A stretch of DNA of 12,562 nt from a virus (IMGVR_UViG_2531839666_000031), one strand, 5' to 3'; positions 10,363-10,533 are shown, numbered from the stretch's first letter. Translations and numbers: made by a program. The notes: generated by a model from the sequence alone, not told the origin.

Positions 10363-10533
10363 TTAATGCACGTTTTGTGTACTTTCCCTCCGGGGAGAAC
10401 AGGCAGGACATATCAGCATCCTGAAACAGGACGCATTTTGGGGTTTGTATGTCTTGCCATTTTGAGATCGAGAACGGCGATAGATGAGCTGTAAGGGAGT
10501 CTTACAGGCAGGGCAAACAGGCTCTTTATCCAT
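10363..10533 (-). CDS. Small zinc-ribbon protein (CPAC..CPAC), 56 aa from the second ATG
   Basis: MDKEPVCPACKTPLQL..LICPACSPRRE; two CxxC pairs about 31 residues apart; AAGGAG lies 9 nt upstream of the ATG at 10533-10531; the ORF-track start at 10557 has no ribosome-binding site. Confidence 0.45.
   Translation of the reverse strand: MDKEPVCPACKTPLQLIYRRSRSQNGKTYKPQNASCFRMLICPACSPRRESTQNVH

Follow-up and report, generated by a model that had tools for sequence, protein, structure and literature searches.

A predicted zinc-ribbon gene divergent from com-mom in Mu-like prophages of Escherichia coli and Salmonella, probably an exchangeable accessory gene

Introduction

What kind of gene lies back to back with com and mom in some Mu-like prophages, and does it serve these two genes or simply stand beside them? 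The question is raised by a stretch of 12,562 nucleotides (nt) from a virus (IMGVR_UViG_2531839666_000031), which is the right end of an Escherichia coli Mu-like prophage and is referred to, at its full length, as the window. On its minus strand, at 10363–10533, a short open reading frame (ORF) encodes a predicted zinc ribbon of 56 amino acids (aa) with two CPAC motifs. Mom is an anti-restriction enzyme that is toxic to the host, and the zinc ribbon is a candidate in the search, much pursued but centred on Mu, for what silences mom. The reading that we favor, with a probability of roughly 0.6, is that of an intact, independently expressed Cys4 zinc-ribbon gene which occupies an exchangeable accessory (moron-like) slot, and which is not an obligatory regulator of com-mom. 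What is new is modest, namely a narrowly distributed family of small zinc-ribbon proteins, encoded at a fixed place by com and a modification gene (mom, or a C5 DNA methylase gene in one Salmonella prophage), and a clear error in how the reference genome of a pathogen is annotated.

The Zinc-Ribbon Gene and Its Product

The coding sequence (CDS) comprises 56 codons on the minus strand (10363–10533), from the ATG at 10533–10531 to the TAA at 10365–10363. Its product, MDKEPVCPACKTPLQLIYRRSRSQNGKTYKPQNASCFRMLICPACSPRRESTQNVH, is a basic protein (isoelectric point 9.66, net charge +6.5) with CPAC knuckles at residues 7–10 and 42–45. A Shine-Dalgarno sequence, AAGGAG (10548–10543, minus strand), stands 9 nt before the ATG at 10533, and this arrangement is shared by all of the copies, of E. 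coli and Salmonella type alike, that were examined; the ribosome-binding and start region common to both types reads AAGGAGATCTTTAT, then C or T, then ATGGATAAAGA. The start codon itself lies in the 3-nt loop of an inverted repeat with 8-base-pair (bp) arms (I8, TCTTTATC / GATAAAGA; 10523–10541, minus strand), which is also kept in Salmonella, where a C to U change in one compared locus (L020) gives a G-U pair. A 64-aa version starting from the ATG at 10557, which appears in the ORF listing, is rejected because the extension runs into a stop codon in two relatives (L023 and L024), and the protein is therefore taken as 56 aa long and not 64.

The cysteine motif is rare in this DNA. Among 1640 distinct stop-to-stop segments of 40–120 aa, from all frames of the compared sequences, just eight carry CPxC..CPxC, and all of the matches listed are copies of the zinc-ribbon ORF; of the CxxC..CxxC segments listed, most are either Com or the zinc-ribbon ORF. 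In an AlphaFold2 (AF2) model, with a predicted local distance difference test score of about 70, strands at residues 15–20 and 36–41 lie between the knuckles, and helices are absent; a two-sequence alignment brought no gain over the single-sequence model. Two CxxC knuckles, each at a beta-hairpin turn, could hold one zinc, as in a generic Cys4 zinc ribbon, which is a structural class and not a homologous family. Judged from sequence and model, the product is predicted to be a small zinc-binding protein. The frame and product put forward in the preliminary description of this locus thus stand, as does its geometry, the gene being convergent with a DUF826 gene (10079–10324, plus strand) and divergent from com. 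The spacer toward com is AT-rich and palindrome-rich, as had also been noted there, with a GC content of 33–37% around 10625–10924 and eight inverted repeats within 10300–10960.

Homologues, Selection and Family Searches

When 1.84 billion representative proteins were scanned in full with HMMER, members of the zinc-ribbon family alone came back. The Salmonella homologue, P0032 (53 aa), is 47% identical to the window protein, with an expect value (E) of 5.4e-7, and shares with it MDKE, both CPxC knuckles, GKTY[KR]P and CSP; the four cysteines of the knuckles are invariant, and a fifth (C36) is not kept. Family members are thus marked by an MDKE start, CPxC, GKTY[KR]P and CPxCSP, a length of 52–56 aa, and a gene divergent from com. 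In Salmonella Mu-like prophages, the P0032 gene and com are divergent, their starts lying about 390 bp apart; the gene after com is mom in L021 and that of a C5 DNA methylase in L020. Two scans of one-genome-per-species contigs gave zero further relatives, and a word-indexed search with a two-sequence profile gave the same two groups, E. coli and Salmonella, only. The family is confined to Mu-like prophages of these two bacteria. Its Salmonella members are annotated as free-standing hypothetical proteins of 52–53 aa on hundreds of contigs, and the E. coli form is called rarely, on a few Logan-assembly contigs and in partial NCBI entries.

Between the E. coli and Salmonella types, synonymous divergence (pS) is 0.72–0.80, which is saturated, and non-synonymous divergence (pN) is 0.31–0.33. 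Within each type, the ratio of non-synonymous to synonymous substitution rates (dN/dS) of the CDS is 0–0.56, and 7 of the 11 variable sites among E. coli copies are synonymous in the zinc-ribbon frame, 4 being non-synonymous. These patterns indicate that the frame is under purifying selection. That the ORF is a real gene, as had been proposed, is borne out by the 47% identical Salmonella homologue, the synteny, the pS and pN values and the conserved ribbon-gene ribosome-binding site.

Profile searches were less productive of a name. Pfam gave sub-threshold zinc-ribbon matches only, the best being Trm112p-like (PF03966; 17.3 bits, E 0.0047), which falls below the 22-bit gathering threshold and is rejected. 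The marginal matches in PHROGs, phrog_9584 (E 0.006) and phrog_2834 (E 0.014), are both function-unknown families, and in NCBIfam the window protein is unmatched. In PADLOC-DB 2.0, searched at E up to 0.1, the window protein, P0032 and the alternative occupants of the slot described below are all unmatched, the sole match in the scan being a marginal one to PD-T4-7 (E 0.0025) from a downstream Salmonella gene. A sequence profile search of the Protein Data Bank (PDB) retrieved only TAF3 PHD knuckles, at E above 0.6, and Foldseek found nothing in the PDB at E <=0.001. The preliminary description held that membership of a family could not be assigned from sequence, and this is still so after the profile searches; its suggestion of a C-like or Ogr-like activator finds no Ogr/Delta, Com or helix-turn-helix match.

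Four specific identities were considered and rejected. Ogr/Delta (PF04606) is unlisted in the Pfam scan at E up to 1. For Mu C/Mor, Pfam and NCBIfam contain no helix-turn-helix match, and AF2 predicts no helices. Paralogy with Com (PF10122) has no Pfam match, and an hhalign comparison of the family alignment with four Com proteins gave a probability of 12.7% over 12 columns, covering one zinc knuckle. The YgiT/MqsA finger (TIGR03831) gave P0032 14.2 bits (E 0.04) against a cut-off of 20.2, and hhalign with residues 1–65 of MqsA gave 6%.

Predicted Promoter, Leader and Terminator

The gene appears to have transcription signals of its own. A predicted sigma-70 promoter on the minus strand (10742–10715, TTGACT-16-TAGGAT) has its -35 element, TTGACT, at 10742–10737 and its -10 element, TAGGAT, at 10720–10715, with a predicted start near 10708, and lies about 185 bp from the start of com. 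A GATC site (10717–10714) overlaps the -10 element, so that the promoter is possibly Dam-sensitive, and five GATC sites lie within 10711–10960. In Salmonella, the hexamers are kept (TTGACT and TAAGAT) and the spacer has diverged; L007 carries TTGACT-16-TACGAT, and L023 has a different, near-consensus promoter, TTGACG-17-TATAAT, with the same end point, just before ATATGTAGTA.

The predicted leader, from about 10708 to 10534, is some 175 nt long and would fold into three hairpins, with a minimum free energy of -59 kcal/mol and a z-score of -5.3. The first, SL1 (10671–10706, minus strand; inverted repeat I5, TATGTAGTAT / ATACTACATA), would form the 5' end of the transcript. The second, SL2 (10636–10665; inverted repeat I4, AGGTCCAGATAG-N6-CTATCTGGACCT), can be read on either strand and occurs in at least 11 stem sequence variants in which pairing is retained. 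Its unit consists of ACTACATAAAGGGAG, the hairpin and GCATCAATGCTTTACTTCG, present as a single copy in the window and duplicated in tandem in L006, L023, L024, L038 and L040. SL2 may be either a stem of the leader or a weak intrinsic terminator for plus-strand transcripts ahead of com-mom, and its variants display no consistent preference for either strand. The third, SL3 (10554–10624, minus strand; inverted repeat I3), is the most conserved intergenic stretch, with 90% paired cells compared with 36–46% in slid controls, and with four pairs changed on both sides. Pairing in SL3 is only slightly better on the strand of the gene (90.0%) than on the opposite strand (84.3%), whereas the folding energies of the two strands (-59 and -58 kcal/mol) do not discriminate between them. 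Together with the ribosome-binding site, SL3 forms a block of 96 nt (10534–10629) with 88.5% identity between E. coli and Salmonella, in contrast to 54% nucleotide identity in the zinc-ribbon CDS, 44–61% in the flanks and 45–68% in the rest of the spacer. Constraint on this block acts on the nucleotide sequence itself. No Rfam family matched the leader, even at E up to 5.

Downstream, a GC-rich hairpin (I1, CCGGCAGG-TTTC-CCTGCCGG; 10334–10353) lies between the convergent stop codons and is probably a bidirectional terminator; downstream of the Salmonella homologue stands a canonical terminator, CTCCAGCC-TTATT-GGCTGGAG-TTTTTCTGTT. Under the accessory-gene reading, transcription would run leftward from the promoter at 10742–10715, with GATC in its -10 element, into a transcript with a three-hairpin leader of about 175 nt, translation would begin at the ATG at 10533, and transcription would end at the hairpin at 10334–10353, shared with the convergent DUF826 gene. 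The zinc ribbon would thereby be expressed separately from the late genes, and the protein would fold as a zinc ribbon with a basic beta-hairpin that binds nucleic acid or a partner protein.

An Exchangeable Slot

The strongest indication of what the gene is comes from relatives in which it is replaced. In L005–L008, the zinc-ribbon ORF is missing and unrelated genes stand in its place. L005 and 5 of the 18 viral contigs with the leader motif carry instead a helical-looking protein of 68 aa that begins MDKLTTD (L005 3273–3479, minus strand), encoded behind the same promoter and leader as the zinc ribbon; a further occupant of 66 aa is found on the plus strand of L005 (3110–3310). In L007, a zinc-ribbon/membrane protein of 175 aa, its ribbon N-terminal and accompanied by a hydrophobic segment (2777–3304, minus strand), lies behind a diverged copy of the promoter and leader, and L008 has an acidic protein of 86 aa (3046–3306, minus strand). 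None of these alternative occupants gave anything above threshold in Pfam, NCBIfam or PADLOC. The slot variants L005, L007 and L008, as well as the viral contigs, all retain the same com-proximal control region. Since unrelated small genes are found behind the same promoter and leader, the zinc ribbon is most likely an accessory gene, the one that fills this slot most often.

Damaged copies also occur. L026 has a remnant of the zinc-ribbon gene only, and in L016–L018 and in O157:H7 Sakai an additional G after ATGGAT shifts the frame off the well-placed ATG. Relatives which have the same com-mom region and no zinc ribbon, taken together with these damaged copies, indicate that the gene is dispensable for a prophage bearing com-mom, and this argues against an obligatory com-mom regulator. 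The preliminary description had named a disrupted or absent ORF, in close relatives with otherwise conserved flanks, as counting against its view, and such relatives exist in part: the ORF is absent from L005–L008 and from 5 of the 18 viral contigs, and damaged in L015–L018 and L025. Its proposal of an RNA- or DNA-binding regulator fares similarly, in that nucleic-acid binding is plausible for so basic a protein (isoelectric point 9.7), whereas dispensability in relatives speaks against an obligatory regulator. From its context, the zinc ribbon probably acts by binding nucleic acid or a partner protein. The conserved promoter-leader module also offers a handle for finding accessory genes, possibly of defence or counter-defence, in transposable prophages.

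Alternative Explanations

Current annotation gives a different picture of this DNA. Gene callers favor an overlapping minus-strand frame of 135 codons, here called ORF A (10820–10413), over the zinc-ribbon frame, and PHROGs has a family for it, phrog_26524. In every RefSeq E. coli genome inspected (n=3), the Prokaryotic Genome Annotation Pipeline (PGAP) joins ORF A to the zinc-ribbon frame as a single 'frameshifted hypothetical protein' pseudogene (10363–10820), and an intact ORF of 154 aa is present in O157:H7 Sakai (ECs_4996) and in cluster P0001. On these grounds, the zinc ribbon might be what is left, at the C-terminal end, of a gene for about 154 aa that has suffered a frameshift, a reading which we consider highly improbable. 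The 154-aa fusion is found only where the single G is inserted after ATGGAT, and another indel yields another fusion, P0019. In the Salmonella DNA homologous to ORF A, which is 68–89% identical to it, each of the three frames is interrupted by stops; in E. coli relatives, ORF A contains -1 and +8 indels, neither a multiple of three; and the covarying hairpins, where they vary, rewrite the 'protein' sequence. ORF A overlaps the conserved promoter and begins, with an ATG at 10820, upstream of both the promoter and the transcript start that are predicted, and the Salmonella homologues are annotated as free-standing. The stops and the frame-breaking indels lead us to reject both ORF A and the 154-aa ORF as genes: ORF A is, on this comparative evidence, non-coding promoter and leader DNA, and the RefSeq frameshift and ECs_4996 are artefacts, the latter fusing non-coding leader DNA to a real gene of 55/56 codons because of a 1-nt insertion. 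A systematic annotation error, which extends to the reference enterohaemorrhagic E. coli genome, is corrected in this way; what gene callers and PHROGs contain, in place of the zinc ribbon, is the spurious upstream frame. No literature on ECs4996–4998 was found, and the zinc-ribbon peptide is absent from the supplementary tables of the Sakai ribosome-profiling paper; in Sakai, the locus is annotated as the 154-aa ECs_4996. Even less probable is a chance open frame in a non-coding spacer, to which the shortness of the ORF, its being seldom called in E. coli and the low diversity within each type would lend themselves; the frame and its four cysteines are kept at 47% identity in the face of saturation at synonymous sites, the start codon is conserved together with its ribosome-binding site, and CPxC..CPxC is as rare as 8 in 1640 segments.

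If the gene is real, it could still be more closely bound to its neighbours than an accessory gene would be. As a dedicated regulator, the zinc ribbon would bind the DNA between the promoters, or the com-mom messenger RNA (mRNA), and so tune or silence the toxic modification operon, with its divergent promoter in the role of momP2. Its position back to back with com in both E. coli and Salmonella, whether Mom or a C5 methylase follows, its strongly basic character, which it shares with Com, and the GATC cluster that spans both promoters are in keeping with such a role, and momP2 of Mu competes with Pmom (PMC3378877). We nevertheless regard it as unlikely: unrelated genes fill the slot in prophages with the same com-mom control region, Mu has no zinc ribbon and only 95 bp between gin and com, similarity to Com is lacking (12.7%), the Pfam scan gave no Ogr/Delta or helix-turn-helix family, and damaged alleles are common in prophages that otherwise look intact. 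Control might alternatively reside in the RNA, the gene being part of a cassette gated by RNA, such as an antisense-controlled module or one resembling a type I toxin-antitoxin system, in which the leader would hold translation at a low level and the start codon would sit in a hairpin loop. A short plus-strand RNA would run from the promoter-like TTTACA-18-TAGGAT (10564–10593) to the U-rich-tailed SL2, antisense to the leader. The length and strong structure of the leader, the much higher conservation of SL3 and the ribosome-binding site than of the CDS, the inverted repeat across the ATG, the correct order of the plus-strand promoter-like site and terminator-like hairpin, and the retention of TTTACA and TAGGAT in L023 despite changed surroundings would all fit. 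This reading seems to us doubtful, and less probable than a dedicated regulator, given that the protein is not hydrophobic, unlike most type I toxins, that unrelated cargo genes use the same leader, that SL3 pairs slightly better on the strand of the gene, and that the conserved 'hexamers' double as parts of the stem and the loop of SL3. The leader has no Rfam family, and the single Hfq-bound small RNA (sRNA) candidate listed for the Sakai prophage Sp18 is located elsewhere. A broader suggestion, tentative and of about the same low likelihood as the dedicated regulator, is an undescribed regulatory cassette in which the leftward promoter and the leader of about 175 nt, with its duplicable covarying hairpin module, gate interchangeable small effectors; such gating could be post-transcriptional, through an antisense RNA, in a type I toxin-antitoxin-like manner, or through a protein-binding leader as in com-mom. 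If this were true, the zinc ribbon would be a new kind of effector in phage-host conflict or modification control.

The reading as an accessory gene in an exchangeable slot, which we prefer to all of these, has to be set against several observations that weigh the other way. One zinc ligand is lost in L015 (Cys7Tyr), the copy in L025 is frameshifted, and alleles with the additional G make up a sizeable fraction of E. coli copies, so that the gene is often weakened or lost. As the diversity within each type is low, the signal of selection comes mainly from the single split between E. coli and Salmonella. The old position by com in both genera, and a leader more conserved than the CDS, could mean a functional tie to com-mom control and not cargo. 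Promoter, transcript start and terminator are all predicted from sequence, and the terminator at 10334–10353 has a poor U-tract on the minus strand. Finally, the searches described above gave no family, fold or defence-system match for the zinc-ribbon protein.

The com-mom Region and the Prophage Setting

To the right of the leftward promoter, an inverted repeat with two GATC sites (I7, AATCGATCG-N7-CGATCGATT; 10867–10891) is common to the window and the mom upstream region of phage Mu, and belongs to the com-mom control region, not to the zinc-ribbon gene. In Mu, mom is under Dam/OxyR control (PMC3378877). The distance from the end of the repeat (10891) to the ATG at 10927 is 35 nt (10892–10926), compared with about 75 nt in Mu, where the interval contains the annotated late promoter Pmom. 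As only 35 nt separate the GATC repeat from the ATG at 10927, the layout of the com-mom promoter differs from that of Mu, and no confident placement of this promoter could be made for the lineage of the window. The com gene (10927–11136, plus strand; Pfam Zn_ribbon_Com, E 6e-11) encodes a protein with CRHC-15-CPRC and is followed by mom (11090–11827; Pfam Mom, E 4.5e-77). In the window, com has an extra A at 10943 in a run of A (CGAAAACAT as against CGAAACAT), which is missing in all 14 of the 14 aligned relatives. With the extra A, the usual com start (ATG 10935, MYRNIRCRHC...) is no longer in frame, and com is then open only from the ATG at 10927, 2 nt past the AGGAGG ribosome-binding site. 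It is either a sequencing error or the mark of a weakened com and hence a silent mom. In Mu, the gap between gin and com is just 95 bp, with no annotated gene in it. In the Salmonella prophage L020 (GCA_037155775.1), a C5 cytosine DNA methylase (4398–5610; PF00145, 350 aa) overlaps the end of com and replaces Mom, which suggests that a different DNA-modification enzyme has come to use translational control of the Com type.

The prophage ends near 11955, at the start of the host gene yeaX (carnitine monooxygenase reductase; 11951–12562, minus strand), and positions 1–11955 of the window are 99.4% identical to a prophage of O157:H7 strain F7508 (L002). The junction with yeaX was found in none of 5426 complete E. 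coli genomes searched, as expected, because Mu-type transposition is random; the zinc-ribbon region is present in 233 of the 5426. In the phage collection, this region was found only in two Shiga toxin (Stx) phages that bear an inserted Mu-like phage. From left to right, the window holds tail and baseplate genes, the invertible-segment recombinase gene gin (about 7014–7575), a 679-aa esterase with DUF6645 and SASA domains (7675–9714), a DUF1378 gene (9861–10043), the DUF826 gene, the zinc-ribbon region, com and mom. The esterase, DUF1378 and DUF826 families are ones that we take to be typical of lambdoid Stx-type phages. This trio lies between gin and com in an arrangement that recurs in annotated E. 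coli relatives, and the stretch at 7675–10324 has the look of a moron block that has passed from one type of phage to another. An extra C at 7312 breaks the 561-nt gin into two ORFs (7014–7364 and 7294–7575), and other single-base indels relative to L002 lie near 93, 107, 130, 137 and 1611; seven single-base indels in 12 kilobases suggest either errors in the sequencing of homopolymers or a prophage in the early stages of decay. A candidate sRNA of Sakai prophage Sp18, EcOnc37, is given in the supplement of an Hfq-crosslinking study (PMC4104026). It would map to about 9577–9647 (minus strand) in the window, on the strand opposite to the esterase gene and across from its 3' end, a placement made by offset from Sakai 5077340–5077410 that assumes the same genome version and may be in error by up to about 130 nt.

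Comparison with Known Systems

One close comparison is with Com of Mu, which, like the zinc-ribbon protein, is a small (62–69 aa), basic, zinc-binding Cys4 protein of phages, and whose gene also has its place at this end of the Mu-like genome. Com acts by binding a structured mRNA leader (PMC6483171, PMC3378877). The two proteins differ in that 15 residues separate the CxxC knuckles in the Com of the window, and 31 in the zinc ribbon; unlike com, the zinc-ribbon gene lies on the opposite strand, has its own predicted promoter and is absent from Mu. Ogr/Delta of P2 and P4 is likewise a small Cys4 zinc-finger phage protein, whereas the zinc-ribbon gene belongs to a different phage group and is dispensable in relatives. 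In Mu-like phages, the late genes are activated by C, which is a helix-turn-helix protein (PMC3378877, PMC4461284). In Mu, the divergent promoter momP2 overlaps Pmom and competes with it, and the passages of PMC3378877 that bear on its transcript mention no coding role. The leftward promoter of the window, which also lies upstream of com-mom and near Dam (GATC) sites, resembles momP2 in these respects; unlike momP2, it is clear of the com-proximal region, and downstream of it come a long structured leader and a real gene. MqsA has Cx2C-x30-Cx2C (sequence checked against PDB 3GN5/3HI2), close to the Cx2C-x31-Cx2C of the zinc ribbon, which is a resemblance only: the PDB profile search did not retrieve MqsA, and, unlike MqsA, the zinc-ribbon protein is without a helix-turn-helix domain and its gene without an adjoining toxin gene.

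A conceptual parallel is with phage morons and accessory-gene hotspots. The zinc-ribbon locus resembles them as a self-contained unit of predicted promoter, gene and terminator at a fixed position where gene content varies among similar prophages. It differs from them in that the promoter and leader of the slot are constant, and the coding part alone is swapped.

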